Source: Bacillota bacterium (lineage in GTDB: Bacteria > Bacillota > Clostridia > Christensenellales > CAMQZB01). From it: a DNA stretch of 64,000 nt. The position numbers were made by a program, and so were the translations under genes. The stretch spans positions 3,069 through 67,068 of the forward strand of contig JAWXUU010000011.1 of the NCBI GenBank assembly GCA_044426085.1, given 5' to 3'. Shown one piece after another: positions 10,464 to 46,403 of this stretch. The number at the start of each line of letters is the position of its first letter. Positions within the stretch are counted from its first letter, which is position 1. The notes beneath the pieces were generated by a model. That model did no database searches. It was not told the DNA's origin and saw only the letters and a program-made list of their open reading frames with translations.

Positions 10464-10485
10464 TGGGTAAGTTTTTGGGTAAGTT
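10464..10485. promoter_or_regulatory. Candidate arm-type integrase binding sites (2 x TGGGTAAGTT, 12-bp period)
   Basis: Direct repeats at 10464-10473 and 10476-10485, abutting the int stop. A third copy lies at 23258-23267 near the other end of E1. Confidence 0.5.
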
Positions 10486-13990: not shown

Positions 13991-14242
13991 ATGAATTGGA
14001 AAGTAATCGCTATTATATTAGCAGTTGTCTTGGTGCTAGTTATAGTTTCGTGTGGTGTGTTTACAACTGACACCGAAGAAGAAGCTCTGGAAACGGGTGA
14101 ATCGTTTGAATTGTCTGGTTCAATCGAATCAGATACAATGTCAAGTTATATGAGCCTTTTAACAGATAATTGGCTTATGATTGCTCTTGTTATTCTCGCT
14201 TGCTATGCCGGCAAGAGCTACGTCGACTATAAATTAAGATAA
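13991..14242 (+). CDS. pVIII-like small membrane protein (candidate major coat protein)
   Basis: 83 aa. It has a signal-like helix (WKVIAIILAVVLVLVIVSCG), an acidic segment (TTDTEEEALETGESFELSG...) and a hydrophobic helix (WLMIALVILACYAG), and ends in the basic tail KSYVDYKLR. Homologue in E2 at 39164-39427. Confidence 0.6.
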   Translation: MNWKVIAIILAVVLVLVIVSCGVFTTDTEEEALETGESFELSGSIESDTMSSYMSLLTDNWLMIALVILACYAGKSYVDYKLR

Positions 14243-14259: not shown

Positions 14260-15564
14260 ATGAAATCAAAAATTAAAAATAATAAAAAAATATTGTTGTT
14301 GTTGGTGCTTACCCTTGTTATTGCACTGACTTACTCACTTTGTGTAGGTTTCACCTACGCCGAAGACACACCGAGATATATCTCTGACGACTATGGTATC
14401 GCAACAACTGATATTGTTAACGAAGAAACTCCAGCTGCGGATCCGGAAGACGGCAGCGTAGGTGATATCACTGAAACTTCTTACGATATTGGTCAAGCTA
14501 CATATGAATATGACGACATCGATGCTGATGAGCTTGCTGAATCAACATATGCTCCAGTTATCTCGCCAACAGACTCTGTGACTATAACAGCTTCAGTTGT
14601 TTATTCAGATACTGCAATTGATGAAACTGGATATTTGCAAATCATTGCAAAAACTCCATCAGATACAGTCTTTGCAAACTATGATGAAGTTATCACAGTG
14701 GCGGATTCAATCACATCAGAAACATCTTACACTGGTTCTTATACATTCTCAAACCTTGAAGCCGGCGAATATGAATTCATGTTCATGTTCTACACTTCAG
14801 CTGACGAAGTTGATGCAGTTTATTCAGTAGTCCAAACTGTTATGGTTTCAGGTTCTATCACAGAAATGTCAACAATCTCTTCAATCACAGTAAATTATGG
14901 CAGCTGCGTTTTCGCAAGCTTTACTCATGAAGCAGATGAAAACATGGGTACACTAGCTTATAACTGGTATATCGACGATGAATATTTCACAACAACTGAA
15001 GACCCTGAAATTGATATTTGCAATATGCCGGTTGGTGAATATGTAATGTATTGCAACATCGTTCCAGAAGTGGGCGTAGCAACAAAAACAAATTCATTTA
15101 ACGTGACAGTTCTTGCTATTGTTTCAGATGATGATGTTGTTATTGTATCTCCAACTTCAGTTGAAATCACTGAAGGCGAAAACGCAACTGTTATGGTTGA
15201 TGTTTCTGCACCAGCAGATTCAACAATCTCTTATATTTGGTATGTTTCTAATGTTCAAATCACAGATGTAAACAATTCGATTGTTTCTTTCTCTGGTCTT
15301 TCAGTCGGTGAATATTCTGTTTACTGTGTAGTCACTGTGGACGGTGTTTCTTATGAAACAGATGCAGCAACAATCACAGTTATTGAAAATACTTCAGTGG
15401 GCGTGACAGACACAGATACAGACACAGATACAGACGCTGATGCAGATGCAGAAGATGAAGAAGAAAGCACTCTTGACGGAATTCTTGAGTTCTTGAAAAC
15501 TTACTGGCTAATAATCGGTTGTATCATTGTTGTTGTCTTTGTTATCTATAAAAAGAAGCAATAA
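14260..15564 (+). CDS. Secreted, C-terminally anchored surface protein with two Ig-like modules
   Basis: 434 aa. N-terminal signal/TM, acidic region, two W(Y)..G.Y..YC modules, (TD)n/(AD)n acidic linker, and a TM helix ending YKKKQ. Homologue in E2 at 39445-40902. Confidence 0.75.
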   Translation: MKSKIKNNKKILLLLVLTLVIALTYSLCVGFTYAEDTPRYISDDYGIATTDIVNEETPAADPEDGSVGDITETSYDIGQATYEYDDIDADELAESTYAPVISPTDSVTITASVVYSDTAIDETGYLQIIAKTPSDTVFANYDEVITVADSITSETSYTGSYTFSNLEAGEYEFMFMFYTSADEVDAVYSVVQTVMVSGSITEMSTISSITVNYGSCVFASFTHEADENMGTLAYNWYIDDEYFTTTEDPEIDICNMPVGEYVMYCNIVPEVGVATKTNSFNVTVLAIVSDDDVVIVSPTSVEITEGENATVMVDVSAPADSTISYIWYVSNVQITDVNNSIVSFSGLSVGEYSVYCVVTVDGVSYETDAATITVIENTSVGVTDTDTDTDTDADADAEDEEESTLDGILEFLKTYWLIIGCIIVVVFVIYKKKQ

Positions 15565-15581
15565 AAATATAAGGGGTTTAT

Positions 15582-16337
15582 ATGAGAAAAAAAATATATA
15601 AACTCACTGTTTTCATTGTTTTGTTAACTCTTAGCTTTGCACTCTTCTCTGGCTTTACTTGGTGTCCTTATTGCAGTGAGTTATGTGAAGATTGCGGAGC
15701 AACGGGTTCAAGCAGTGAGTGTATTGATATGACACGTTATATATCTGAAGATGATTATTATTCCTATGCTGAAGACGAATACTTCTCTTGGGGATATGAA
15801 AAATTGTGTTTGGATATAAAGGGAACGTATGTTTGTGAATTGTGTTGGACAGTTACGCAAGCGGAAAATGATGATGTTTATTATTATGTAAACTATGAAA
15901 CGGGGATTGAATACATCTCTTACACTTGCCCAAATTGCGAAAATGTCCACATTATTCAGCTGAGCGATATCGTTTGGGAAGATTATTCTTATACGTATTA
16001 TGCTGACTATTTGACGGCTGTTTTCTTCCCTTGTGAAGATTTCAGTTTTGCATATGGCTGTCAAGCTGAAGACTGTGCAACTTGCGACGGTGTTGGTTAT
16101 TCACTTTGCAATCATCCAACAGTAGATACTGAAGATTTAGATATTGAAGATGAGTCCGACTCTGATGCCGGTGATGACGTTCCAACGGTCGACACAACGC
16201 AAAGCGCAACAAGCTCTGATGTAACTTTCTTCTCTGATGCATTTGAATGGGTGGAAGCAAATATTTTTATATCAATAATAATTGGTGGAGTAGTGATTAT
16301 CCTTTTGTTATTGCTTATTAAGAAAATGATGGGTTAA
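15582..16337 (+). CDS. Cys-rich secreted, C-terminally anchored protein
   Basis: 251 aa. Signal/TM, CxxC motifs (CPYC, CEDC, CELC, CPNC, CATCDGVG), acidic linker, and a TM helix ending KKMMG. Confidence 0.7.
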   Translation: MRKKIYKLTVFIVLLTLSFALFSGFTWCPYCSELCEDCGATGSSSECIDMTRYISEDDYYSYAEDEYFSWGYEKLCLDIKGTYVCELCWTVTQAENDDVYYYVNYETGIEYISYTCPNCENVHIIQLSDIVWEDYSYTYYADYLTAVFFPCEDFSFAYGCQAEDCATCDGVGYSLCNHPTVDTEDLDIEDESDSDAGDDVPTVDTTQSATSSDVTFFSDAFEWVEANIFISIIIGGVVIILLLLLIKKMMG

Positions 16338-16340
16338 AAT

Positions 16341-17906
16341 ATGAAAAAGATATGTAAGAAAAATAAAAATGTGCCAATTATCGCTGTTATTATTATATCA
16401 GTGATTTTTGGCATATTTTGCTTTCCAGCAGTTGCTTTCGCAGATGTTTATGTTGATTCTTACATATACGATTGTCCTGATTGTGAAAGTGGCACTGTCA
16501 CAAATCATCTAATATATGATTGTTCTGTATACGGCTGTATTGATGGTACGATTTCTTCAGATGTTACAACCACTTGCACAAGTTGTTCTGGGAATGCTGT
16601 TCTTTATACATATACTTCAACAACATGTTCGGCGTGTTCTGGGCTTGGCTATTATTATTCTTATAGCTATGATGGAGATGAAAGTAAACCTGAGTTTGTT
16701 AAAATTTTTGGTTGTACTGCATGCGGTGGATATGGTAGTGGTAATGAGTATAATGGAAGGACGTTTAGTTCTGCATTTTCATCTGCAATTACTTCTTTTG
16801 AGTCTTATATATCTTCCGGCACTGCGGCTTATGGTGCTGGAGTGATAACGTCTGTATCTTCAGCTGATTGTCCTTCATGTACTGATGGAAATATTTATTC
16901 CACAGCTTTTTCCGATTGTCCAGTATGTGTTGATGGAATTGTTGATGAAGTTTATTATACATCTTGTGATATATGTGATACTTTAGGTATTATTTTAGAC
17001 TCAAATGTATACACCTTCGATTGTCCAGATTGCACTGATGGAACATACACCACAGCAACAACAACTGACTGTCCAAACTGTACCGATGGAACAAAAACAA
17101 CCACAACAACGTCAACTTGCACGTCTTGCACAAATGGTTATGACTATTCATCTTTCTGCCTGAATTGTAGCGGTTATGGTTATTATGTAGAACCTATTTA
17201 TTATAAAAATACAACTTTAGTGGGGTATCTTCTATATGGATGCACTACTTGCGGGGGTTCGGGTTCATCTTCTGCGGTTGAATATGCCGATTTAGATTTT
17301 GATAATATAACATACGGTTGTGGAAAGGGTGATTGCTCCGATTGTGTTGGTGGGTTGATTTACACTGATACAATCTCCGATTGTACAACTTGCGGTGGTG
17401 AAGCTGTTTTATATGGCGACACTACATATGAATGCCCGACATGTTCTGGCATATCTTGCGTATTTAAAGGTATTGACATCCTCACAGTCTTGCCTGATGT
17501 TGCAATCCTTGACGATTCTTCTATAAATGTATCATTCGATACGTATGAAATAAATGACGTGGGCACTGTTGAATATATCTGGGTTATAAACAATAGTATC
17601 TATTCTTCTTCAAGCTCGCCAAATTTGGAACTTTCTTCAATTCCTATTGGAACTTACAAAGCTTATTGCATTGTGCTTTCGCAGTATGGGTTCACAACAG
17701 AAACGAATGAATTTACAATTTATTGTATTGATATAAATGACTATGGAAGCTTAGATTCTTCTGATAGTAGTGATAATTTTTCATTCACGGATGTGTTTTC
17801 TTCCGTGCTTGGGAATGGTTTTTCTAATGTAATTTTAATAACGGTATGTGCTGTGATTTTAATCCTTTTCTTATGCGTTATTTTTCTATATATAAAAAGG
17901 GGGTAA
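16341..17906 (+). CDS. Secreted protein with array of DnaJ-type CxxCxGxG / CxxCxDG knuckles, an Ig-like module and a C-terminal anchor
   Basis: 521 aa. I count 15 CxxC motifs (for example CSACSGLG, CTACGGYG, CLNCSGYG, CTTCGGSG, CPDCTDG, CPNCTDG). It also has one W..G.Y..YC module and a TM helix ending YIKRG. Confidence 0.8.
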   Translation: MKKICKKNKNVPIIAVIIISVIFGIFCFPAVAFADVYVDSYIYDCPDCESGTVTNHLIYDCSVYGCIDGTISSDVTTTCTSCSGNAVLYTYTSTTCSACSGLGYYYSYSYDGDESKPEFVKIFGCTACGGYGSGNEYNGRTFSSAFSSAITSFESYISSGTAAYGAGVITSVSSADCPSCTDGNIYSTAFSDCPVCVDGIVDEVYYTSCDICDTLGIILDSNVYTFDCPDCTDGTYTTATTTDCPNCTDGTKTTTTTSTCTSCTNGYDYSSFCLNCSGYGYYVEPIYYKNTTLVGYLLYGCTTCGGSGSSSAVEYADLDFDNITYGCGKGDCSDCVGGLIYTDTISDCTTCGGEAVLYGDTTYECPTCSGISCVFKGIDILTVLPDVAILDDSSINVSFDTYEINDVGTVEYIWVINNSIYSSSSSPNLELSSIPIGTYKAYCIVLSQYGFTTETNEFTIYCIDINDYGSLDSSDSSDNFSFTDVFSSVLGNGFSNVILITVCAVILILFLCVIFLYIKRG

Positions 17907-17908
17907 TC

Positions 17909-18040
17909 ATGAATAAACTCTTGATGTTTTTGGTATTGGTAATTGTTTTGTTGTTTACTCTGGATTCTTTGGGATATGTCGATTATTTCGATTTCATCGA
18001 ACCAGGGCAAGCAGTGTTTAGTAATATATTTGGAGAGTAA
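17909..18040 (+). CDS. Conserved 43-aa hydrophobic micro-protein
   Basis: MNKLLMFLVLVIVLLFTLDSLGYVDYFDFIEPGQAVFSNIFGE. GGGGG RBS. Same position and clear similarity to E2 43255-43395 (..LGYIDFFEFVEPDTAIFS..IFGE). Confidence 0.65.
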   Translation: MNKLLMFLVLVIVLLFTLDSLGYVDYFDFIEPGQAVFSNIFGE

Positions 18041-18043
18041 GAT

Positions 18044-19705
18044 ATGACAAAAATTTTTAAAAAAATTTTCAATATGGAAAATTTAAAAAAAGCTGCTGCG
18101 TTATTTGTAATCCTCGCAGTTTTGCTTTCTTTGTTCACTGGTTGCACTGTATCCATGAGCGATGATTGTTGCGATGATTGCGATGGATCTTATTTAGTAT
18201 TTGCATCAGAATATCCAACAGACTCTTGTGCGGATCCAAACTGCACCGATTGCACCGATTGCGAAAGTGTTTGTGTCGACTGTTCTGACTGTGATTTTGA
18301 TGTAGAGTTAATAAGTTCATCTTGGGTTGATTGTGCGGATTGCACCGACGGTGGCTCATACGTTGTTTCTTCTCGTGTTTGTACAACTTGTAGCGGTGTT
18401 GGAATTTTAACAAATCGTGTCACATCAACATGCCCAACTTGTCTGGGAACGGGCGTTGGTGTTTCTTATGTACAATGTATAGCTTGCGGCGGTGATGGCG
18501 TTTTTGTTTGTCCTGTTTGTGAAGGCTTGGGTTATTACACATCTAATGAGGAAAATTATGGTTGTACAAATTGTGGTGGTAACGGTCTTAGAATGGAAGG
18601 TGCTACTGCTCGAGCTGGAACTGGAACAGTAGATTGTGCTAACTGCGTTGATGGTTATTATACTTCAACTCGCTGCGGCACTTGTTCTGGAGCGGGTACT
18701 GTAGCTTCATGGGTTGCATCTGATTGTACTGTAACGGCTTGTAATGATGGAATAATCACAACAACAACTTGGGTTGAGTGTTCAACTTGTTTCGGTTCTA
18801 AAGGTTGGTGGATTGATAACGATACTACATATTGTGATTATTGCGGTTATTCACAGCTCGCAACTTGCCCCGATTGTTATGGTTATGGTTATGTGACTTT
18901 AGATGGTGAAAATTATGGCTGTGTTACTTGTGGTGGTAATGGTCTTAGAATGAATGGTGCGACGGCTATCGCTGGTTCTGGAACTATAGATTGTTCATAT
19001 TGTACTGATAGCGTGTATTACACTATTGACTTTGTATGTGTAGATTATGACGGCTATGGTTTTGATGATTATTCTGTAACTGTTAAACATGGTGATTCTA
19101 TCCCATCTATTCTCGGGTGGTCTGAAGATACATATTATTACACAACAACTCAAGCTGGCGGAACTACAATATCAAAAGATTCTGTTGCTGCAGATGATAT
19201 GACAATTTATGTGCAGATTTTAGGAGTGAGTGAAACTTTTACTGTCGCATATTATGAAGTCTCTTGGTCTTCAACATCATGTCAATATAATTTTGCATCA
19301 TCTGATATTTTGAGTGCAAATAGTATTATTGTTCCTTATGATGCGGATGATTTGATGTATGGTTCATCTTTTGAAGAATATGCAGATATTTATTCTTTTT
19401 TGGGCTGGACAACTTCTGATGATTTTTATATAAGTGTTGATTATAATGATTTTGATTCTTCGGATGTGATTGATTTTGATAGTTATCAAGTGACGTCTGA
19501 TTTAAGCTTATTTGCTGTTTATGATTGGACTGAACCAGCAGTGGATAATGATTCATTTTTTGAAGGTTTATTTGATTCTGATTCAAATTTATTTGAAGTA
19601 TTATTTGACTTCGATTCAAGCTTGGCAAATTATCTGGTCTATGGTCTTATAGCCTTGGTAGTTATCGGCATACTTTTGTTCGTGGTTTTGATGTTTAGAA
19701 AGTAG
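18044..19705 (+). CDS. Lipobox-bearing protein with duplicated DnaJ-type zinc-knuckle array, Flg_new-like C-terminal repeats and a C-terminal anchor
   Basis: 553 aa. Lipobox-like LFTGC. Internal duplication (CPVCEGLGYY..NYGCTNCGGNGLRMEGATA..VDCANCVDGYYT versus CPDCYGYGYV..NYGCVTCGGNGLRMNGATA..IDCSYCTDSVYYT). The Cys-free C-terminal part has ..LGW....D.T.Y / FLGWTTS...DLSLFAVYDW, resembling Listeria-Bacteroides repeats. TM helix ending MFRK. Confidence 0.8.
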   Translation: MTKIFKKIFNMENLKKAAALFVILAVLLSLFTGCTVSMSDDCCDDCDGSYLVFASEYPTDSCADPNCTDCTDCESVCVDCSDCDFDVELISSSWVDCADCTDGGSYVVSSRVCTTCSGVGILTNRVTSTCPTCLGTGVGVSYVQCIACGGDGVFVCPVCEGLGYYTSNEENYGCTNCGGNGLRMEGATARAGTGTVDCANCVDGYYTSTRCGTCSGAGTVASWVASDCTVTACNDGIITTTTWVECSTCFGSKGWWIDNDTTYCDYCGYSQLATCPDCYGYGYVTLDGENYGCVTCGGNGLRMNGATAIAGSGTIDCSYCTDSVYYTIDFVCVDYDGYGFDDYSVTVKHGDSIPSILGWSEDTYYYTTTQAGGTTISKDSVAADDMTIYVQILGVSETFTVAYYEVSWSSTSCQYNFASSDILSANSIIVPYDADDLMYGSSFEEYADIYSFLGWTTSDDFYISVDYNDFDSSDVIDFDSYQVTSDLSLFAVYDWTEPAVDNDSFFEGLFDSDSNLFEVLFDFDSSLANYLVYGLIALVVIGILLFVVLMFRK

Positions 19706-20429: not shown

Positions 20430-21557
20430 TTGGTAGCCAGATTGAAAGAAATATCACCATCAATATTTTATTTTGGAATCCCTTTAGGTATCTGGGCTTC
20501 TGTTTTAATATTTATGATATTGAGAGCAATTCTTCCTTTTGTTTCTCTAAGCTGGATAGATATTGTTCTTTTTATACCGCCATGCATATTCATTTTTGTG
20601 CATGGCAAGTTATTTATCCAAATTATAAAGGGTATTATGCAATGTCTTGCGGAAAGCTTCGATCAGATAAATGAAGTTTACGTTATGCCTATTTGTGGCA
20701 TGGCGCGCGGCGGTAAAACCTTGTTGGGTTCTGCGATAGTTGTTCGCAAAAGTCAAATAAATTGGTATAAATTGCAGATGCAATATTTCAAAATGTCTAA
20801 ACTGCAATGGCTTTCAAAATATATTGATAATGAAGTATGGTCCGCGCGATGGTTTGAAGTTAAGGATTCATATGAGTATTGGATATCTTATCCAGAATAC
20901 ATACCATGTTTACTTTCTTCAATTCGAATCACGGATAAATACGGCAGATATTCTAAAGAGCTTCATCTGGAACACCTTTTGCAAAAAGAGCGTATCCCTG
21001 CATATTCTTATATTTTACTTGATGAAGCTGGTTCGGTGGTTGGGTTGTATTATTCAATGAATAAAGACCAGTCACTTATCAATTTTATCCGCTGGATTGG
21101 GCAGTTTTGCGAAGTTCATTTGATATTGACAGAACAGCGTGAATCGAATATAGCGATTGATATCAGAGAAGTCGTTGGTGCAGTTGTTATGGTTGAGATG
21201 GAAAAAAAGATGCAAGCGGTAAAAGGCTTGCAATTTGTCGAGAAGCTCGTGCAAATTGGCCATCAAAAAGGATGGTCGCCGAAAGCTTTTGATTGTATCC
21301 AAAAATTAGAGAATTGGTTTAATAAAGTCGGTTATTTTGCATTCACTATGTATGTTGATTATGGCAATGGTGTTGAAACAATTCATTCAAACATGTGTTG
21401 TAACATGCCGTATAGCTATGAATCGAGAGCATTTTCCCCACTGTATAAAGCGTTGGATAAGTCGTTCGGTGAAAATTCTTCAGATTGCAAGTTGATTTAT
21501 CCAGAATCACAAATGGGGCATTCAATATTAGATTACGAGGTAAAAGTCGATGGCTAA
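20430..21557 (+). CDS. Membrane-anchored P-loop NTPase (candidate assembly/export or DNA-translocating ATPase)
   Basis: TTG start. 375 aa. 2-3 N-terminal TM helices, Walker A GMARGGKT, Walker B YILLDEAG. Homologue in E2 at 45264-46403. Confidence 0.7.
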   Translation: MVARLKEISPSIFYFGIPLGIWASVLIFMILRAILPFVSLSWIDIVLFIPPCIFIFVHGKLFIQIIKGIMQCLAESFDQINEVYVMPICGMARGGKTLLGSAIVVRKSQINWYKLQMQYFKMSKLQWLSKYIDNEVWSARWFEVKDSYEYWISYPEYIPCLLSSIRITDKYGRYSKELHLEHLLQKERIPAYSYILLDEAGSVVGLYYSMNKDQSLINFIRWIGQFCEVHLILTEQRESNIAIDIREVVGAVVMVEMEKKMQAVKGLQFVEKLVQIGHQKGWSPKAFDCIQKLENWFNKVGYFAFTMYVDYGNGVETIHSNMCCNMPYSYESRAFSPLYKALDKSFGENSSDCKLIYPESQMGHSILDYEVKVDG

Positions 21558-36476: not shown

Positions 36477-37574
36477 CTACTTTTTGTCTAGTGTATTGTT
36501 ATTAAACTGCTCGGCTATTTGTTGATCAAACTTTTCGCTTTCACGTAATGCAAAATCTTCACGCACATCGGTGTATATATCCATAGTCATGGCTATTGTT
36601 GTGTGCCCCATCCACGATTGCACAACCTTTTGTGATATACCATATTCATGGCAATTTGTCGCAAAGGTCTTGCGTAAATCTCGCACTGTTCGATTTTCAA
36701 AAATTTTGTGAAATTGACGTGTAACATAATCGGGTTTGTAATCAAATTTAAGTTCTTTATCTCCCAACAACCGTTTAACACTATCAAAGAACGGTAACAT
36801 CCTTTGCGACTTCTTAGTTTTTGTCCCATTAACTTTGAAAAAGTTTTCTGTGCATTCTTTCGGATTAAATCGCAAAGCTTCGCTTCTGCGTTGCCCAGTT
36901 AAAAGCACGAATATATAATATTTTTTCAAATTCTCTGACACTGCTTTTGTTTTGAACAAAATTTCTTGTTCTGCTTTCGTTAGTGCAATAGAATGGATTT
37001 TATCATAGACAACAACATTTAATTGCTCCGCTGGATCAATTTTAATTACGTTGTTTATTCTTGCCGTTTTAAACAGTGATTTTATATAGCACCTTATTTT
37101 ATGCCTTGTGTTTCCGCCTTCGATATTATTCAAAAGTCGTTGCAAATCTGCATTAGTTATCCGTCTGATGTTTTTAGAGCCGATATTGCCACGGATATGC
37201 TTATTGGTTATGTACTGAATACTTTTGAATGTATCTTTAGAACATGAAGGCTTTTTATATATTTCTAGCCATTCATCAAGCCATTGCCCTACTGTTGTAA
37301 CAGTAGGCTTTTTTGTTTTTTCTGGTTTAAACTCGGCTTTCCATGCTTTGTATTTTTGTACTACAATAGCTTGTGTTTTGCCGTAAAAACCTATTCTTTC
37401 ACCTTCGTATGTGATTCTTAGCTCCCACACGTTGTTTTTTCTTTTTCTTAAAGTGTTTCCTGCAACTTTCATTATTTCTTCTTCCTTTTGGTTGTTATTT
37501 TGAAATAATGCAGTTTCTTTCGCACTTCCCCCCGCTGGTTCGTACCAGTTATGACTTTGTGTTGCACCATCCAT
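36477..37574 (-). CDS. Tyrosine recombinase / phage-type integrase
   Basis: NNVWELRITYEGERIGFYGKTQ arm-binding-type N-terminus. GQRRSEALRF, LRKTFATNCHEYG, GHTTIAMTMDIY. Coordinates give the maximal ORF. An AAGGAAG RBS favours ATG 37472. An upstream mini-ORF with a strong SD is out of frame (see findings). Confidence 0.88.
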   Translation of the reverse strand: MDGATQSHNWYEPAGGSAKETALFQNNNQKEEEIMKVAGNTLRKRKNNVWELRITYEGERIGFYGKTQAIVVQKYKAWKAEFKPEKTKKPTVTTVGQWLDEWLEIYKKPSCSKDTFKSIQYITNKHIRGNIGSKNIRRITNADLQRLLNNIEGGNTRHKIRCYIKSLFKTARINNVIKIDPAEQLNVVVYDKIHSIALTKAEQEILFKTKAVSENLKKYYIFVLLTGQRRSEALRFNPKECTENFFKVNGTKTKKSQRMLPFFDSVKRLLGDKELKFDYKPDYVTRQFHKIFENRTVRDLRKTFATNCHEYGISQKVVQSWMGHTTIAMTMDIYTDVREDFALRESEKFDQQIAEQFNNNTLDKK

Positions 37575-39163: not shown

Positions 39164-39427
39164 ATGAATTGGAAAATATTAGCAATTGTGTTGATTGTAG
39201 TTGTTGTTATCGTTGGGGCTTATAGCTTTGGAATCGGGTATTTCACTGAAGAAGAATCCGTTGACGATGGAACGGCGGAAGTGCTAGAAAGTTTTGATGT
39301 AAGTGGTAGCATTCAATCGGACTTCTGGGATAGTTTCAGTGATTGGCTTTGGGCTAATTTGTGGTGGATGTGTGGTGCTGGTCTTATCGTTTGGGGTGTG
39401 ACAAGCTATGCAAAATCACGAAAATAA
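39164..39427 (+). CDS. pVIII-like small membrane protein (candidate major coat protein)
   Basis: 87 aa. MNWKILAIVLIVVVVIVGAYS signal-like helix, acidic segment, Trp-rich hydrophobic helix, basic tail YAKSRK. The N-terminus aligns with E1 13991-14242. Confidence 0.6.
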   Translation: MNWKILAIVLIVVVVIVGAYSFGIGYFTEEESVDDGTAEVLESFDVSGSIQSDFWDSFSDWLWANLWWMCGAGLIVWGVTSYAKSRK

Positions 39428-39444: not shown

Positions 39445-40902
39445 ATGAAAACGAAAATTAAAAATAAAAGTAAAATTATGAAACTGCTTTCAGTTTCGCT
39501 TGTGGCTGTTCTGTGCATGTCAACGTTGGTGGGTTTCGCTAACCCTGCCGAAACGTGTTTCGCTTGCACAGATTGTGATGATTGTGTGTCAGATATGGCA
39601 CTTGATGGCGATGACATGCCAGTGGCTCAAATTGCTTGCGATGAAAGCTGTGGATGTGGCGGAACTGACTACACACTTTATGGCTGTGATTCCATTTGTG
39701 AATGTGGCACTGCAGTAGCTATCATTGATGACGGCATTGCAACTATCAGTGATGATTCAGAAGAAGACACACTTGTTGTTGGAACATACACATATTCATA
39801 TGATTTGGGACTAGCTTCTTATTCATATGATGAATCAGAACTAACTGCAGATAACGAAGATATCACAACAACATCATACAGCCCATCAATCTCTGGTGAT
39901 GCTGATGTGACAATTTCAGCTTCTGTTCAATATCCAGAAAGCGCGGACGGTGATGAAGGTCTAGTTCAAATTTACTATCTTGGACCAGATGAGAGCACTT
40001 TCGCTGCATATCTAGACGACCCAGAACAAGTCATTGCTGAAATCGATTATGAAGAAACATACACATATTCATACACATTTGAAGACCTTGAAGCTGGTAT
40101 GCATAAAATCATTTTCAAGTTCTATTCAGACGATGATGACGTGAACGCAGTTTACACAACAGCAAGCACAGTTATTGTTTCTGGAACAATCACAGAAATG
40201 TCAACAATATCAGACGTATCAATGACTTCTGGAACAGACACAGATGTTTCATTCACATTCACAACAAACGGTGATTTGGGCGACCTTTCATATGTTTGGT
40301 ATCTCAACAATACAGCATACGAAACAACAGAAGATCCAGAAATCACTTTGAACACTCTTGAAGCTGGTATCTACACTATGTTTTGTAGAATCAAACCATC
40401 AGTTGGAACAGCTGTCGATACAAACTCTTTCACAGTGACAGTAGGTTCTGCCGTTGGCGAAGGTGGTATTATCATCGTTTCGCAACCAAGTGACGTACAA
40501 GTTAAAGCTGGTGAAGCTGCAACAGTTTCAATCTCGATGACAGCAGAAGACGGTCTTGCTATTGGATACGAATGGTATATCAACGATAGTGCTATTGAAA
40601 ACAGCAACACATCAACAATTTCATTCAAAGACCTTTCAGTTGGTTCGTATGACGTATATTGTGACGTTTCTATCGATGGCGAATATTCTTTCACAACAGA
40701 CATTGCAACGATTTCTGTTATCGAAGAAGACGCAGACGCTGACACTGAAACAGACGCAGACGCGGACGTTGACAGTGAAGAAGATGAAGAAACATTCTTG
40801 ACAAAAGCAAACAACTGGTACGACGAAAACACAACTCTATTTTGGGTTATTATCGGTCTTGGTGTTGTCGTTATTATTTATCTAGTAAAGAAAAATAAAT
40901 AG
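39445..40902 (+). CDS. Secreted, C-terminally anchored surface protein with two Ig-like modules
   Basis: AGGAG RBS before ATG 39445 (track ORF opens at 39361). 485 aa. Cys-rich N-terminal part, long alignable stretch with E1 14260-15564 (..VSGTITEMSTIS..), acidic (AD/TD) linker, and a TM helix ending KKNK. Confidence 0.78.
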   Translation: MKTKIKNKSKIMKLLSVSLVAVLCMSTLVGFANPAETCFACTDCDDCVSDMALDGDDMPVAQIACDESCGCGGTDYTLYGCDSICECGTAVAIIDDGIATISDDSEEDTLVVGTYTYSYDLGLASYSYDESELTADNEDITTTSYSPSISGDADVTISASVQYPESADGDEGLVQIYYLGPDESTFAAYLDDPEQVIAEIDYEETYTYSYTFEDLEAGMHKIIFKFYSDDDDVNAVYTTASTVIVSGTITEMSTISDVSMTSGTDTDVSFTFTTNGDLGDLSYVWYLNNTAYETTEDPEITLNTLEAGIYTMFCRIKPSVGTAVDTNSFTVTVGSAVGEGGIIIVSQPSDVQVKAGEAATVSISMTAEDGLAIGYEWYINDSAIENSNTSTISFKDLSVGSYDVYCDVSIDGEYSFTTDIATISVIEEDADADTETDADADVDSEEDEETFLTKANNWYDENTTLFWVIIGLGVVVIIYLVKKNK

Positions 40903-40910
40903 GTGAAAAC

Positions 40911-42260
40911 ATGAAGAAAAATACTGTTAAAAAATTGAATACTGTTTTTGTCAGTTTTCTGCTGATATTAACAGTATTTTTCTGTTCTTTTGGTTCATGT
41001 TTTACCACAGCTTTTGCAAGTGACTTATTCCCTTGCGATTGCCCAGATTGTTCTGACGGCACAACAACAACGCAAATAACAACAGATTGCACAGCGAGTG
41101 GGTGTGTGGATGGTGAAATAACAACAGAAGTATCTTCAACATGTTTGACTTGTTCTGGTAATGCTGTCGTTTATACATCTACATCAGCTACATGTACTAC
41201 TTGTAGTGGTGTTGGAAGTTTTGTTTGTTCGTCATGTAGTGGAAAGGGTTACATCACTTTTGGGGAAGACATTGATGATTATACATCATATCATTGTATT
41301 GCATGTACAGCATGTGGGGGTTTCGGTGGTAGTCCTGTTGGGTATGGTTCATCAACTCTTGCTAAAAGTCAATTTGATTCCCGTGTTTTGAGTGGCACTG
41401 CCGCATATGGTTCGGGTTCAATTTCATGTTCTGTGTGTTCTGGGACAGGCACAAAAACAACAGTAACATCATCAGACTGCCCAGACTGCACCGACGGCAA
41501 TATATATACTACAGCAACATCAGATTGCCCAGCTTGTATCGATGGTGAAATAACAACAGAATCAACAATCACATGCCCAACGTGCGACGGCACTCAAATT
41601 ATATATATCGGACTGGACAACCTTTCCACGATACCGACAGTTCTCATGACAGAAGACACAGAATTCACTGTCGTATTCACATATGGTGAACTTGGTGATG
41701 TGGGTTCTTTAGAATTTGTTTGGTATATCAACAACATTGCATATAAAGTCACGGATACGGCGAGTTTAACACTCACTGAGCTTCCAGTGGGTATTTATGG
41801 AATGTATTGTGAAATAACTTCATCGGTAGGTTTTTCCACAACCACAAACCAGTTTGAAATACAAGTGAATCCAGCACAGCAAACGACGTATATTCAAATA
41901 GCACAGCAACCTTCATCTTATACGATTAAGCAAGGGGAATCGGTGGCTATTGAACTCGATGAAGAAAATGCTTCAGCAGTTGTTTGGTATGTGAACGATA
42001 TTGAAACAGCGTCTGACGTCATGGAAATTGACCTTTCCGTTTATGATATCGGGGTTTATGAAATCTATTGTGAATATACAATCGAAGAAGAAAGCTTCAC
42101 ATCAGACGTCGCAACGGTTTCTATCGTTAACGATGACGGTTTTACAGAAGATATTGAATCAGCTTGGGATAATGTTGTCAGTGGCTTCTGGATAGCTATT
42201 GGGGCGGGTCTTGCAGCTGCATTACTTGCATATCTTGCAGTCAAAGCAAGTAAAAAATAG
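40911..42260 (+). CDS. Secreted Cys-knuckle protein with two Ig-like modules and a C-terminal anchor
   Basis: 449 aa. The N-terminal half aligns with the N-terminal half of E1 16341-17906 (CPDCSDGTTTTQITTDC..CLTCSGNAVVYTSTSATCTTCSGVG). TM helix ending KASKK. Confidence 0.8.
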   Translation: MKKNTVKKLNTVFVSFLLILTVFFCSFGSCFTTAFASDLFPCDCPDCSDGTTTTQITTDCTASGCVDGEITTEVSSTCLTCSGNAVVYTSTSATCTTCSGVGSFVCSSCSGKGYITFGEDIDDYTSYHCIACTACGGFGGSPVGYGSSTLAKSQFDSRVLSGTAAYGSGSISCSVCSGTGTKTTVTSSDCPDCTDGNIYTTATSDCPACIDGEITTESTITCPTCDGTQIIYIGLDNLSTIPTVLMTEDTEFTVVFTYGELGDVGSLEFVWYINNIAYKVTDTASLTLTELPVGIYGMYCEITSSVGFSTTTNQFEIQVNPAQQTTYIQIAQQPSSYTIKQGESVAIELDEENASAVVWYVNDIETASDVMEIDLSVYDIGVYEIYCEYTIEEESFTSDVATVSIVNDDGFTEDIESAWDNVVSGFWIAIGAGLAAALLAYLAVKASKK

Positions 42261-42272
42261 GAAGGTACTGCA

Positions 42273-43250
42273 ATGAAAAAAGCACGACAACAATTTAATA
42301 AACGAATATTTGCATTCATGATTGCTGTTGTGCTTTTATTCAGCGCGGTAGTCCCAACTGTGGTTTATGCAAGTAGTTATTATGAATGTGACTGCACGGC
42401 ATGCGTTGATGGGGTGATAACAACAACGTCAACAATCGATTGCACTAACACAGCTTGCGTGAATGGCACAGTGTCAACAACAGTTTCTTCAACTTGCACG
42501 GCTTGCAGTGGCAGTGGTTATAGTTATTCATTTTGCCCAACTTGTGGCGGTGAAGGATATTATGTCACGCCTATCTATTATAAAGAAACCACTGTTGTCG
42601 GGTATCTGCTTTACGGTTGCACAACTTGTGGCGGTTCTGGTGATTCTTCTGCAGTTAGTTATTCTGATTTGAATTTCGACAACATCACATACGGCTGTGG
42701 ACGGGCTGTCTGCTCATCTTGTACAAACGGCACTGTATACACCACAACAACGGAAACTTGCACAACGTGTTCTGGCATTGGAACGCTCACAGAAACAACA
42801 TTTGAAGACTGCACCACATGTGACGGCAGTGGAAGCTTTGTTTATGGGATAGACAATATATCCAGAATATCCACGCAAATTATATCGCTGGGTGATAGCA
42901 AAGAAGTTTCTTTCACTTTCGATACTGTTGGTGATGTTGGGGATATTGAATATTATTGGTTTGTTGATGACGTGATGACCAAAATGACAATTGAATCAAA
43001 TTATACGATAGATATTGCAACAGTTGGAACATATGAAATCTATTGCACAATAGTTCCCGCGGTTGGGTATACGTATCAGACGAATACTTTTAAGGTGTAT
43101 GTGACTGGCTCAATTTTTGACAGTTCAAGCACTGATACTGATGATAGCAGTTCGCTTTCGGGGGTAAATATGAATTATGTTTATATAGCACTTGCGGTTT
43201 TAGCTGTTTGCGTGATAGCGGGTGTAGTGATTATAAGAAAAAGGGGGTAA
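42273..43250 (+). CDS. Secreted Cys-knuckle protein with one Ig-like module and a C-terminal anchor
   Basis: 325 aa. It aligns with the second half of E1 16341-17906 (FCPTCGGEGYYVTPIYYKETTVVGYLLYGCTTCGGSGDSSAVSYSDLNFDNITYGCG). TM helix ending IRKRG. Confidence 0.8.
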   Translation: MKKARQQFNKRIFAFMIAVVLLFSAVVPTVVYASSYYECDCTACVDGVITTTSTIDCTNTACVNGTVSTTVSSTCTACSGSGYSYSFCPTCGGEGYYVTPIYYKETTVVGYLLYGCTTCGGSGDSSAVSYSDLNFDNITYGCGRAVCSSCTNGTVYTTTTETCTTCSGIGTLTETTFEDCTTCDGSGSFVYGIDNISRISTQIISLGDSKEVSFTFDTVGDVGDIEYYWFVDDVMTKMTIESNYTIDIATVGTYEIYCTIVPAVGYTYQTNTFKVYVTGSIFDSSSTDTDDSSSLSGVNMNYVYIALAVLAVCVIAGVVIIRKRG

Positions 43251-43254
43251 TAAA

Positions 43255-43395
43255 ATGCTTAATCTTTTACGATTTATTATAATCCTATTCATCGTGTTAT
43301 TTGCGGTGGATTATTTGGGTTATATAGATTTTTTTGAGTTCGTTGAACCAGACACAGCGATTTTCAGCTTTTTGAGCGGGATATTTGGAGAATAA
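43255..43395 (+). CDS. Conserved 46-aa hydrophobic micro-protein
   Basis: MLNLLRFIIILFIVLFAVDYLGYIDFFEFVEPDTAIFSFLSGIFGE. GGGGG RBS. Not in the ORF track (under 60 aa). Homologue of E1 17909-18040. Confidence 0.65.
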   Translation: MLNLLRFIIILFIVLFAVDYLGYIDFFEFVEPDTAIFSFLSGIFGE

Positions 43396-43398
43396 AAT

Positions 43399-44970
43399 AT
43401 GAAAACAATGAAAAATAAAATAAAAAACAACAACAAAAGAATACTCGCATTGACCCTCACACTTTGCGTTATTCTAGCACTCTTTGCGGGTTGCACGTTC
43501 AGTTCTGCAGATACTTGCACGGATCCAAACTGCACAAGCTGTAGCCATGTTGTTTACGCTTCTGAATATGATGTCGAAGTAGCGGCTTACATAGATTGTC
43601 CAGATTGTACGGGCGGTGGTGAATATGTTACAACCACAAGCGATTGCACAACGTGTGGTGGTGATGGTTTAGTTGGTTCATTTGCTACTGTCTCTTGTAC
43701 AAATTGTAATGGTACTGGATATGCTGATTCTACTATCACATGTACTGCATGTAGTGGCTCTGGTCTCTTGGAGTGTTCAACATGTAGTGGATTGGGTTAT
43801 TACGATGTTATAGAAGAGGGCACTGGAACACCTATACGTTATACTTGTGCAGATTGTGGTGGTTGTGGAAAAAGAATGGGTTCTTTTACAACAACTGGAA
43901 CTGGTTATGTTTCTTGCACTATATGTGGTGGTGATGGATTATATGATACATCGCGTTGTACAGAGTGTGATGGTTCGGGGAGTACATATTCTTATTTTAC
44001 AGCTACATGTACCGCAACTGGTTGTGATAACGGAATTATTACTACATCTACTTGGATTTCATGTAGCACTTGTAATGGTGTAGGTGGTTGGATTGAAGAT
44101 GATGATACAACAGATACACCTTCGCCAACAATATCTCCATCTGTTGGCTGTTTATCATGTGGTTATGATGGCACAATTGCTTGCTATGATTGTGATGGAT
44201 TGGGGTATTACGATGTAGAAGAACAAGGTACTGGAACGCTGATAAGATACACCTGTGCAACTTGCGGTGGTGATGGTGGTAGACTCGATGCCGTAGGCTC
44301 AACAACTGGAACAGGTGAAATAGATTGTCCATATTGTACAGATATTTCTTATGCTACAATAACTTTTATAACAAATTATGCTACAACTGAAACTATGACA
44401 GCTACAATAGGTGAAGTTATTCCAACGTTTAGGGGCGTTTCTGCAGATAGTTATTATCTAACATCAGACAGTGATGGAGATATTATTGTTTCCAAAAGTA
44501 CGCTTGTTTCTGATGATATGACATTGTATATTTGGTTTGATGGGTACGAACCTTCATATACTTATGTTTATATTTATCTATTTGAAAGTAGTTGGTCGGT
44601 TTTTGGCACTTGGGAATTAGTCGATTATATATCTGTAGAGGTTGGTTCAACTATTGGTGATATTGAATCGGATTATATAAGCAGTGATTATGATTTGTAT
44701 TATAATCAAGGCAATACTATTTCCGTTTCATATTCTGATATTATTGAAGATTCTACCGATGGATATACATATATTTATGCAATATATAACGGTGATGATT
44801 CAGATGATTCAAGTTCAAGTGATTCCGCTTTCAGGGATGGTGTTGATAGTGCTCTTGATAATATATTCGGAACAGATTGGTTTGGTTCTTCAGATTCAAA
44901 CTGGTCAACTTACGTTGCAATAGCACTTGTTGTTCTGGTACTTCTATTGTTTATAGTAGTTTTTAAATAA
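43399..44970 (+). CDS. Lipobox-bearing protein with duplicated DnaJ-type zinc-knuckle array and a C-terminal anchor
   Basis: 523 aa. Lipobox-like LFAGC. Same internal duplication as E1 18044-19705 (CSTCSGLGYYDV..RYTCADCGG versus CYDCDGLGYYDV..RYTCATCGG). Cys-free C-terminal part, acidic/Ser linker, TM helix. Confidence 0.8.
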   Translation: MKTMKNKIKNNNKRILALTLTLCVILALFAGCTFSSADTCTDPNCTSCSHVVYASEYDVEVAAYIDCPDCTGGGEYVTTTSDCTTCGGDGLVGSFATVSCTNCNGTGYADSTITCTACSGSGLLECSTCSGLGYYDVIEEGTGTPIRYTCADCGGCGKRMGSFTTTGTGYVSCTICGGDGLYDTSRCTECDGSGSTYSYFTATCTATGCDNGIITTSTWISCSTCNGVGGWIEDDDTTDTPSPTISPSVGCLSCGYDGTIACYDCDGLGYYDVEEQGTGTLIRYTCATCGGDGGRLDAVGSTTGTGEIDCPYCTDISYATITFITNYATTETMTATIGEVIPTFRGVSADSYYLTSDSDGDIIVSKSTLVSDDMTLYIWFDGYEPSYTYVYIYLFESSWSVFGTWELVDYISVEVGSTIGDIESDYISSDYDLYYNQGNTISVSYSDIIEDSTDGYTYIYAIYNGDDSDDSSSSDSAFRDGVDSALDNIFGTDWFGSSDSNWSTYVAIALVVLVLLLFIVVFK

Positions 44971-45252: not shown

Positions 45253-45263
45253 GAGTGAATCAT

Positions 45264-46403
45264 ATGCGGTTTATCAAAGAAGCTAAAAGCAACTTGCTAT
45301 ACAATCTTGCACTGATCGCAATATCAATCGCACTCACTGCACTTGGCTACGCAGTTTTTCACTTTTTCGGTGGCGTAGTTCCCGTGCTACTTTTTGCGGG
45401 TGGCATTGCATTGATAGGTTGCTCAACAATAAGTTTTATCGAGTGCCTAGTTTTAAGTAGACAAGCATTCAAAAGCCAGAATGAATATAAAAAGGTGCAC
45501 GCGGTGGAAGAAATCACAGGTCCCCCCGGTGCTGGCAAAACAACGCTTACAAACGTGTTTTTTTATCTTTCAGTGCTGAACATGCAAAAGAAGCTGGAAA
45601 AAGACTACTACGTGAACGAGTGCCACGCCCTTAAAGCTCACTGGATTAAAAATTCAGTGTTTCGTGAAAATCTTGCAGAAACGCGCTATGCGAAAGAATA
45701 TTATGATAAATCCGAATTTTATCCATGTGCATTTTCTAATCAGTCCATGAAAATCAAGGGCGTATCGGTGCATAAGTTCACGCACGATCACAGCGTAGGA
45801 AAAAAGGTTGTTCCGCCATATTCGGTGGAAGATGTGGAAGAAGCGTCTGATATCTACTACACAACAACACATGCAGACAGAGTGCCAGAATGGGGAACAG
45901 ACGCAAGGTTCAAACGCCATCAAGTGAAAGAAACTTTTCTTGTTGAGCAAGAAGTTACGAACATAAATAAAGATGTCCGAAGGGTAGTCGGCGTGACAAT
46001 GGAACTTGAAGAAAGAATCATGCTAGGACAACCCCAGCTTGCGATGTGGATTTATGGGGAGATGCTGAAATTTGGAATGAAGCACAACATCATAAACGGA
46101 GCATTCACAGATATCTTTGACTTTCTTGGCAAGATAATAGGCAAAGTGGGCGTTGTTAAGTGGAAATATTATACCATGTCGGGAACGGAAAGCAAGATCC
46201 AACGACCGCCCCAAAAAGGTACATTTACAGCGTTTATGGACTTACCAATAGAATTTGACAGTCGTATGTTCAGAAACGTTCCACAGACAAGGAATCTTAA
46301 GGATAAACGTATGCCAGAAGGATATAAGAGCCTTGTTTTGGAAAAAGACAGTGCAGAAGCAGAGCTTATGCGAACTGCTAAAATGAAGAAAAAGGAAGAT
46401 TAA
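45264..46403 (+). CDS. Membrane-anchored P-loop NTPase
   Basis: AGGAG 8 nt before ATG 45264 (track ORF opens at GTG 45255). N-terminal TM helices, Walker A GPPGAGKT, acidic Walker-B-equivalent PPYSVEDVEEAS aligned with PAYSYILLDEAG of E1. Confidence 0.7.
   Translation: MRFIKEAKSNLLYNLALIAISIALTALGYAVFHFFGGVVPVLLFAGGIALIGCSTISFIECLVLSRQAFKSQNEYKKVHAVEEITGPPGAGKTTLTNVFFYLSVLNMQKKLEKDYYVNECHALKAHWIKNSVFRENLAETRYAKEYYDKSEFYPCAFSNQSMKIKGVSVHKFTHDHSVGKKVVPPYSVEDVEEASDIYYTTTHADRVPEWGTDARFKRHQVKETFLVEQEVTNINKDVRRVVGVTMELEERIMLGQPQLAMWIYGEMLKFGMKHNIINGAFTDIFDFLGKIIGKVGVVKWKYYTMSGTESKIQRPPQKGTFTAFMDLPIEFDSRMFRNVPQTRNLKDKRMPEGYKSLVLEKDSAEAELMRTAKMKKKED

Follow-up and report, generated by a model that had tools for sequence, protein, structure and literature searches.

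The stretch of DNA analysed here, referred to below as the window, covers 64,000 nucleotides of contig JAWXUU010000011.1 from a Bacillota bacterium, a gut-type member of the Clostridia (assembly GCA_044426085.1, positions 3,069-67,068, forward strand). It carries two integrated elements, E1 and E2, each adjoining a transfer RNA (tRNA) cluster, and this report concerns the row of large, membrane-anchored proteins that each of them encodes.

10485-11588 (integrase, minus strand) to about 23300: element E1.
36477-37574 (integrase, minus strand) to about 49000: element E2.

In both elements a tyrosine integrase and an XRE-type regulator are encoded on the minus strand. The plus strand carries, in this order, a small coat-like gene, the large anchored proteins, small hydrophobic proteins, a P-loop protein of about 380 amino acids (aa) and a replication initiator, the last being of the Rep_trans rolling-circle type in E1 and HTH_36/DnaD-like in E2. 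The row of large proteins extends over 39445-44970 in E2 and 14260-19705 in E1, about 40% of each element, and contains four genes in each, listed below with their parts (Ig, immunoglobulin).

39445-40902, plus strand: P0005, 485 aa, orthologue of P0001; signal peptide, Cys-rich extension (aa 38-87), beta-rich N-domain, module A, module B, acidic linker, anchor and basic tail; its start is backed by the N-termini of the relatives P0013 and P0016.
40183-40461, plus strand: Ig module of type A in P0005 (aa 247-339).
40462-40737, plus strand: Ig module of type B in P0005 (aa 340-431).
40911-42260, plus strand: P0006, 449 aa; signal peptide, head A, modules A and B, short acidic linker, membrane anchor and basic tail, an architecture shared with the relatives P0009, P0010, P0011 and the truncated P0012.
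41022-41603, plus strand: head A of P0006, with ten CxxC-type knuckles (aa 38-231).
41607-41885, plus strand: Ig module A of P0006 (aa 233-325).
41886-42143, plus strand: Ig module B of P0006 (aa 326-411).
42273-43250, plus strand: P0007, 325 aa; signal peptide, head B, one type-A module, Ser/Thr/Asp linker, membrane anchor and basic tail, an architecture shared with P0019 and P0020.
42372-42842, plus strand: head B of P0007 (aa 34-190).
42843-43118, plus strand: Ig module of P0007, type A (aa 191-282).
43399-44970, plus strand: P0008, 523 aa, orthologue of P0004; lipobox-like signal end (LFAGC), head with eleven CxxCxGxG motifs, beta-rich C-terminal domain, acidic/Ser linker, anchor and basic tail.
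14260-15564, plus strand: P0001, 434 aa; N-domain followed by Ig module A (aa 198-290) and Ig module B (aa 291-380).
15582-16337, plus strand: P0002, 251 aa; signal peptide, 15 Cys (five CxxC), acidic linker and anchor, with no Ig module.
16341-17906, plus strand: P0003, 521 aa, fused; signal peptide followed by heads A and B, a single Ig module, linker and anchor.
17466-17744, plus strand: Ig module of P0003 (aa 376-468).
18044-19705, plus strand: P0004, 553 aa, orthologue of P0008.

All eight proteins have an N-terminal hydrophobic, signal-like stretch and a single C-terminal membrane segment followed by a short basic tail. When the last 70 residues of each were checked for the LPXTG-like motif of sortase-anchored proteins, it was found in none of the eight. 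An all-against-all BLASTP comparison identified two collinear pairs, P0001/P0005 (38% identity over the full length, expect value (E) 2e-100) and P0004/P0008 (36% identity, E 5e-107). Each protein is a string of cassettes, in the constant order signal peptide (lipobox-like in the last gene), distal head, stalk, acidic or Ser-rich linker, and membrane helix with basic tail. The stalk consists of one or two Ig-fold domains or, in P0004 and P0008, of a different beta-rich domain, and the head is either an array of DnaJ-type CxxC(xGxG) knuckles or a putative beta-sandwich N-domain.

The most marked difference between the two rows is that a single gene in E1 stands for two genes in E2. P0003 aligned over residues 1-218 with P0006 1-231 (40% identity, E 1.7e-52, BLASTP) and over residues 217-521 with P0007 30-325 (42.6% identity, E 1.2e-84, BLASTP), and the two alignments meet at P0003 aa 216-228 (window 16986-17024). 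Local alignment of this junction revealed that head A of P0003 ends in a short remnant matching the first strand of the first Ig module of P0006, and that the residues after the remnant match P0007 directly past its predicted signal-peptide cleavage site. The junction thus joins the head/stalk boundary of P0006 to the mature N-terminus of P0007, and what P0003 lacks by comparison with the E2 pair is exactly two Ig modules, the upstream linker and anchor, the 12-bp gap and the downstream signal peptide. Because the missing parts exactly span the P0006 stalk to the P0007 signal peptide, the comparison points to a deletion-fusion in the E1 line, by which head A of a P0006-like gene would have come to precede the mature portion of a P0007-like one. 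Among the relatives recovered, the fused P0003-like protein was seen in E1 only. A simple event of this kind appears compatible with the module phylogeny described below, since the approximately unbiased (AU) test did not reject a clade of the P0003 module with P0007-like modules (p 0.38).

These alignments agree with a preliminary description of the locus, which had matched the 521-aa E1 protein to two E2 genes. It had aligned the N-terminal knuckle array of that protein with E2 40911-42260; the match is sound for the head, but P0006 is more than a head and has its own two modules, linker and anchor, all absent from P0003. The 251-aa protein P0002 had been said to be without an E2 counterpart, and a tblastn search of the whole window gave a best E2 match of only E 0.21, as that statement would have it. 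Modular rearrangement, the general claim of that description, is likewise evident in the one-against-two gene arrangement, in a variable Cys-rich extension and in the differing number of CxxCxGxG repeats between orthologues. The heads are all homologous to one another, as are the type-A modules, and the large-protein genes arose by tandem duplication. Their later divergence involved one in-frame fusion or fission, the gain or loss of whole cassettes and, in the centre of the head, changes in the number of knuckle repeats. The Cys-rich N-terminal extension (P0005, window 39556-39705) contains no CxxCxGxG motif; P0005, P0013 and P0016 have it and P0001 and P0014 do not, which makes it one more cassette subject to gain and loss.

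The stalk module was counted by a scan for the motif GxYxx[YF]C and by a hidden Markov model (HMM) built from the copies, which scored them at 80-118 bits. Exactly eight copies were found in five proteins, two each in P0001, P0005 and P0006 and one each in P0003 and P0007, and the HMM gave no match in P0002, P0004 or P0008. The module is a complete domain of about 90 aa, and in every protein that bears it the last copy ends 11-31 residues ahead of the C-terminal membrane segment. The W, G, Y and C of the pattern are invariant in 8/8 copies while pairwise identity between copies is 17-45%, and this likeness indicates homology rather than chance. Thus the census of eight copies in five proteins close to the anchor, and the pattern W..G.Y..(Y/F)C, were correctly given in the preliminary description; the size of 55 aa was too small, and the linker that follows, there called acidic, is strongly so in part of the set only (the 40 residues ahead of the anchor contain 14-17 D/E in P0001 and P0005, but 4 D/E and 15 S/T in P0007). 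A tree of 22 modules separated a type A (distal or single) from a type B (membrane-proximal) with 100/99 support, from which it follows that the tandem duplication of the module predates the divergence of the paralogous genes. The P0003 module is of type A. It was weakly grouped with P0006-like modules in one tree and unplaced in another, and its affinity was set aside as an argument for a more complex shuffle, its placement within type A not being stable.

The preliminary description had likened the module to immunoglobulin I-set domains. Among PDB entries, a profile of the eight copies aligned with four repeats of 9ncf_S ('Immunoglobulin-like domain protein', E 2.7e-11) and also matched 9c2d_S, from a virion entry of Shigella phage Sf14 and deposited as 'Tail protein', at E 7e-4. 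The paper on the Sf14 entry describes gp20 as a decoration protein with three Ig-like domains (PMC11821841), and the 9c2d_S chain appears to be this protein. An AlphaFold2 model of the two-module stalk of P0005 (aa 243-432, 8-row alignment) reached a predicted local distance difference test (pLDDT) score of 85.6 and consisted of two all-beta domains, in which the invariant Trp and Cys fall in strands C and F, respectively. Its best Foldseek matches in the PDB, at E values as low as 6e-10, were tandem Ig domains (MALT1, Dlar, MuSK, Axl and titin), and in the viral structure library (BFVD) it came closest to tailed-phage proteins of the Ig-like, tail, decoration and Hoc kinds. As expected of the Ig fold, a Greek-key beta-sandwich of 7-9 strands, the modelled module superposes on solved Ig domains. 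Thus the structural comparison that had been proposed along with the I-set likeness returned an Ig fold, and the likeness stands for fold and distant homology. It does not stand for Pfam membership, as all modules fell short of the Pfam Ig cut-offs (I-set, PF07679, 15.5 against 23.7 bits; Ig_3 15-17 against 30; Ig_2 23.1 against 27) and their sub-threshold matches were scattered over PKD, Y_Y_Y, SpaA, Ig_3, I-set and Cupredoxin_1. The module alignments showed no conserved strand-B Cys, and the canonical Ig disulfide is absent. The module is therefore a true Ig fold and a distant sequence relative of the Ig-like domains that decorate the capsids and tails of tailed phages. The module profile also gave three weak matches (E 4e-7 to 3e-3) to a 1257-aa open reading frame (ORF) of the host genome that lies outside the window (C17, 65544-66701, minus strand); its product is probably a surface protein of the host built of Ig-like repeats, from which the module may distantly derive or to which it may be distantly related.

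The heads of P0003, P0004, P0006, P0007 and P0008 contain 7-18 CxxC pairs spaced 10-17 residues apart, many of them in the form CxxCxGxG. The family DnaJ_CXXCXGXG (PF00684) was found above the Pfam cut-off in P0008 (36.1 against 32.7 bits), P0012 and P0015, below it in P0004, P0007, P0009, P0011, P0019 and P0020, and not at all in P0003 and P0006; the DnaJ structure 6jzb matched P0008 at E 0.002. Since they lie behind signal peptides, the knuckle arrays are predicted to be extracellular, and the knuckles probably hold zinc or disulfides. Comparison of the head with the ESM Atlas gave only leads to DnaJ/BSD2-type clusters, at template-modelling (TM) scores below 0.4. P0001 and P0005 have a beta-rich N-domain in place of the knuckle head, which in P0001 scores 30.6 bits against a cut-off of 26.6 for the Pfam family Y_Y_Y. 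In the relative P0015 (273 aa), CxxCxGxG arrays stand at both ends (DnaJ_CXXCXGXG, 60.8 bits) around an unrelated middle, with a C-terminal anchor and no Ig module. Because of this architecture, the design of knuckle head plus anchor also exists without an Ig stalk. The signal peptides of P0004 and P0008 end in a lipobox-like motif (LFTGC or LFAGC) and both proteins have the C-terminal anchor as well, so that the unprocessed protein may be tethered at its two ends. No family was matched by the beta-rich domain of about 200 aa at their C-terminus; by eye it resembles Listeria-Bacteroides (Flg_new) repeats, which Pfam did not detect.

A variable head on a conserved stalk and anchor, the pattern of a receptor-binding protein under diversifying selection, had also been proposed; of this, greater variability of the head was borne out only for the head centre among orthologues from other contigs, where head flanks were 49-59% identical and modules 50-61%. 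In the P0006-like group the head centre is 35% identical (21% without Cys/Gly columns) and carries indels of up to about 100 alignment columns, which are extra CxxCxGxG repeats. The head flanks of the same group, at 54% and 59%, do not fit the pattern, given values of 53% and 50% for modules A and B and 58% for the anchor. Without Cys/Gly columns, the P0006-like heads ranged from 21 to 49% against 48-50% for the modules. In the P0007-like group, the head was 35-44% identical against 58% for the module, and in the P0005-like group module A was the most conserved part (54%) and was free of indels. Between E1 and E2, however, the heads were as conserved as the stalks or more so, with head identities of 41-76% against 30% for the module in P0003/P0007 and of 48% against 34% for the C-terminal domain in P0004/P0008. 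The rates of nonsynonymous (dN) and synonymous (dS) change in head and stalk, whose comparison had been suggested with the claim, were computed for E1 against E2. The proportion of synonymous differences (pS) was 0.6-0.8 in all segments and dN never exceeded dS; because synonymous sites are saturated, dN/dS is uninformative on positive selection. Diversifying selection on the heads is thus not supported as stated in this comparison.

The E1 and E2 proteins share one sharply conserved island, a 59-aa segment in the centre of head B, which is the stretch that had been quoted in the preliminary description.

42534-42710, plus strand: head-B central segment in P0007 (aa 88-146).
17157-17336, plus strand: the corresponding segment in P0003 (aa 273-332).

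Identity between P0003 and P0007 is 76% in this segment against 36% in the rest of the pair (Fisher p 5e-8), or 69% against 29% without Cys/Gly columns. Sliding windows along P0001/P0005, P0004/P0008 and P0003/P0006 yielded no further island above 0.60. At identical residues of the segment third-position identity is about 50%, and with pS at 0.62 the synonymous sites are nearly saturated, for which reason the likeness is not a recent exchange. Two readings remain, an old conversion followed by strong constraint, or parallel constraint in two elements that share a host. If the identity were due to old gene conversion between the co-resident elements and not to shared functional constraint, the shuffling would include exchange within one cell. 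Such a history would account for the discordance of the segment, in which P0007 is nearer to P0003 than to P0019 and P0020 (50-53%), the reverse of their overall relationship, the latter being the closer orthologues; pS in the segment is also slightly under the 0.72 of the head flanks. The value of 0.62 is, however, matched by the linker region (0.63), and any exchange must be old. Moreover, the low dN (0.17 against 0.4-0.9 elsewhere) calls for strong purifying selection either way, and we regard conversion as the source of the identity as decidedly unlikely. Whichever reading applies, the segment is, judged by its conservation, the best candidate for a host-specific contact site.

The genes on either side of the row, and a small gene within it, bear on the kind of element concerned.

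39164-39427, plus strand: coat-like protein of E2, 87 aa, a role assigned from shape and gene order only.
13991-14242: E1 counterpart of the coat-like gene, 83 aa.
43255-43395, plus strand: hydrophobic ORF of 46 aa, unlisted, separating large genes three and four of E2; its ribosome-binding site is strong.
17909-18040, plus strand: E1 copy of the hydrophobic ORF, 43 aa, with a strong ribosome-binding site.
45255-46403, plus strand: P-loop protein of E2, 382 aa, with N-terminal membrane segments, a candidate Zot/pI-like assembly ATPase.
20430-21557: E1 counterpart of the P-loop protein, 26% identical to the E2 copy.

The E1 and E2 copies of the coat-like protein align, and its shape is that of an inovirus major coat protein, running from a hydrophobic, signal-like N-terminus through an acidic stretch and a second hydrophobic segment to a basic C-terminus. 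In the gaps that hold the 43- and 46-aa ORFs, about two thirds of the alignment columns between E1 and E2 DNA are invariant. Nucleotide identity between P0003 and P0007 is mostly 0.34-0.58 and rises to 0.66-0.77 only in the conserved head-B stretch, so that the DNA of the small ORFs is about as conserved as the best stretch of the large genes and above most of their length; these ORFs are candidates for small coat or assembly proteins. The P-loop protein had no Pfam match at E <= 0.01. It weakly matched phrog_197 'Zot-like toxin' (E 0.003), and among its nearest named ESM Atlas clusters PF05707 Zot was the commonest family set (17/30 matches), which is a lead only. No capsid, portal, terminase, relaxase or type IV secretion system (T4SS) gene was found in the ORF lists and family scans of E1 and E2. 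The gene order of Ff phages is gVIII-gIII-gVI-gI, and the large-protein row has the position and topology of pIII, with a signal peptide and a C-terminal anchor, between a coat-like gene and a weakly assigned Zot-like gene.

Relatives of the large proteins are few. An exhaustive HMMER search with P0003 of 1.84 billion representatives returned ten matches, four of them from this window, and word-based searches of 5.8 billion clusters added P0009, P0016, P0019 and P0020. The family is very rare, with about ten relatives among some 15 billion proteins. By architecture, P0009-P0012 are of the P0006 type, P0013, P0014 and P0016 of the P0005 type, and P0019 and P0020 of the P0007 type. P0009 and P0013 each lie on a contig of 12,448 bp, and P0010 and P0020 each on one of 10,631 bp. 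Because these paired relatives come from contigs of equal size, it is suggested that each pair belongs to the same element and that the split arrangement recurs. Scans of IMG/VR with P0006 and P0001 found nothing, nor did a P0006-family alignment run against GTDB representative genomes and JGI metagenomes or a tblastn search with P0006 of 72,556 plasmids (PLSDB). The module profile had no match in 5 other genomes of the same family or in 400 genomes of the same order.

Taken together, the two rows are read here, with slightly more assurance than doubt, as operon-like series of paralogous type-I membrane proteins in a very divergent inovirus-like prophage. Because the row lies between coat-like and Zot-like genes, the place of Ff genes III and VI, and because its proteins have the topology of inovirus coat proteins before assembly, their most likely role would be that of virion tip or surface proteins, a view that we consider somewhat favoured. 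The proteins would first enter the host membrane and from there be incorporated into the extruded filament, at its tip or on its surface, the Ig domains serving as spacers or weak glycan-binding accessories and the knuckle head as the specific binding part; receptor binding is what we infer from position and topology.

Several observations weigh against this assignment. Four large tip proteins would be unusual for an inovirus. No match to g3p/pIII, g6p or any other inovirus structural family was found in Pfam, PHROGs or NCBIfam, and tblastn found no match in 50,697 GenBank phage records or in IMG/VR. The family assignment of the ATPase consists of the weak PHROG match and the language-model lead, and its membrane segments precede the P-loop, unlike those of classical pI/Zot proteins, in which the ATPase comes first and the membrane segment lies mid-protein. 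Homology of the C-terminal anchors to the small coat-like protein was considered and dropped, as the likeness was scattered and inconsistent and shuffled sequences also break the hydrophobic runs. An AlphaFold2 model of whole P0006 (5-row alignment) gave a pLDDT of about 30 for the head, whose metal binding and shape are guesses, and the direction of the fusion or fission rests on parsimony and the short remnant, not on a rooted tree.

An alternative is that the proteins are cell-surface proteins of the lysogen and not parts of a virion. They would then stay in the membrane and alter the host surface, for instance in adhesion to mucus or cells, superinfection exclusion or receptor masking. Bacterial fibrillar adhesins are also built from an anchor with basic tail and extracellular Ig-like repeats, the host genome has an Ig-repeat surface protein of its own with weak module matches (the 1257-aa ORF), the lack of homology to known inovirus structural proteins would be expected, and the one head segment shared by two diverged co-resident elements could reflect a common host-side partner. 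However, the tight packing of the row with a coat-like gene, a Zot-like ATPase and an interleaved small hydrophobic ORF is that of a structural or assembly module and not of a moron, a share of about 40% of each element is large for accessory cargo, and, in proteins lacking LPXTG, a stalk of 90-180 residues on a membrane anchor may not cross a Gram-positive wall. We hold this alternative, the main rival, to be unlikely.

It could further be envisaged that E1 and E2 are no phages at all but small integrative mobilisable or plasmid-like islands, with the row as a set of adhesins for cell contact during transfer. The Rep_trans (E1) and RepA_N/DnaD-like (E2) initiators are typical of Gram-positive plasmids, the integrases adjoin tRNA genes, and the P-loop protein, with membrane segments at its N-terminus, bears a loose likeness to coupling proteins. 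In the scans run, however, no relaxase, T4SS, FtsK/TcpA-size translocase or MOB family was detected, P0006 found nothing among the plasmids searched by tblastn, and the nearest named Atlas clusters of the ATPase carry Zot and not coupling-protein families. Moreover, the succession of coat-like, large anchored, small hydrophobic and Zot-like genes follows the Ff order given above. An island of this kind thus seems very unlikely, and the inovirus-like prophage with virion tip or surface proteins is retained as the preferred reading.

To our knowledge, almost nothing is known on host recognition by filamentous phages of Gram-positive gut bacteria, and we know of Ig-like domains as described on tailed phages but not on inovirus-type elements; a literature search for Ig-like domains on inoviruses found nothing relevant, which is not proof of absence. 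A bolder form of the preferred reading is that these are the first filamentous-phage tip proteins with Hoc-type Ig domains and long extracellular zinc-knuckle arrays, forming a multi-protein display tip with the 59-aa head-B segment as receptor contact. This we regard as doubtful; were it true, one short cassette could reveal the receptor specificity of this phage group. As parts of a virion, the proteins could, through the Ig stalk, tie these phages to gut mucus adherence; if they are not virion parts, the locus is a tidy case of domain-level evolution in a mobile element that is otherwise ordinary. In either case, it offers a very rare family with clear domain boundaries, a natural pair of fused and split forms and one sharply conserved head segment.

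Among known systems, the gene III and VI proteins of Ff phages (M13/fd) share with the large proteins a signal peptide, modular extracellular domains, low-complexity linkers, a C-terminal membrane helix and a short cytoplasmic tail, and gene III likewise lies between the genes for a major coat and a pI/Zot-like protein. In contrast to gene III, there are four paralogous large genes here in place of one, with no detectable sequence relation to it; the linkers are acidic or Ser-rich and not Gly-rich, Ig folds and CxxC arrays take the place of the Ff N1/N2 domains, and the incorporation of the proteins into a virion is putative. The cysteine-rich domain of DnaJ (PF00684) and BSD2-type cysteine-rich domains have the same repeated CxxCxGxG, 10-17 residues apart. 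The arrays described here differ from DnaJ in being extracytoplasmic, with 8-18 knuckles against four and neither a J domain nor C-terminal chaperone domains; many of their knuckles are CxxCxDG or CxxxxC, and metal binding is here only predicted.

With T4 Hoc, Sf14 gp20 (9C2D) and chain S of 9NCF the module shares profile similarity and an I-set/C2-like fold. It differs from these phage Ig-like domains in that its F-strand Cys is preceded by two additional residues (GxYxxYC against GxYxC), in lacking a B-strand Cys, in scoring below the Pfam Ig cut-offs, and in adjoining a membrane anchor, in an element in which no capsid or tail genes were found. Homologues of Sf14 gp20 carry tandem Ig copies whose number varies between relatives, as in this family (PMC11821841), and PMC7039812, citing Barr 2013, states that virions bind mucin more strongly through the Ig-like domains of Hoc. 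The inovirus prophages described from gut Clostridia of the genus Enterocloster (Burckhardt et al. 2023, PMC10061712) resemble E1 and E2 in being integrated elements of filamentous type in gut Bacillota and in carrying Zot-like genes; the text of that paper makes no mention of a receptor, of adsorption or of Ig-like proteins. Thus modular surface proteins of phages and mobile elements with Ig-like domains are a kind already known, and the points of interest in E1 and E2 are the inovirus-like setting of the Ig domains and the sharply conserved head segment in two co-resident elements.

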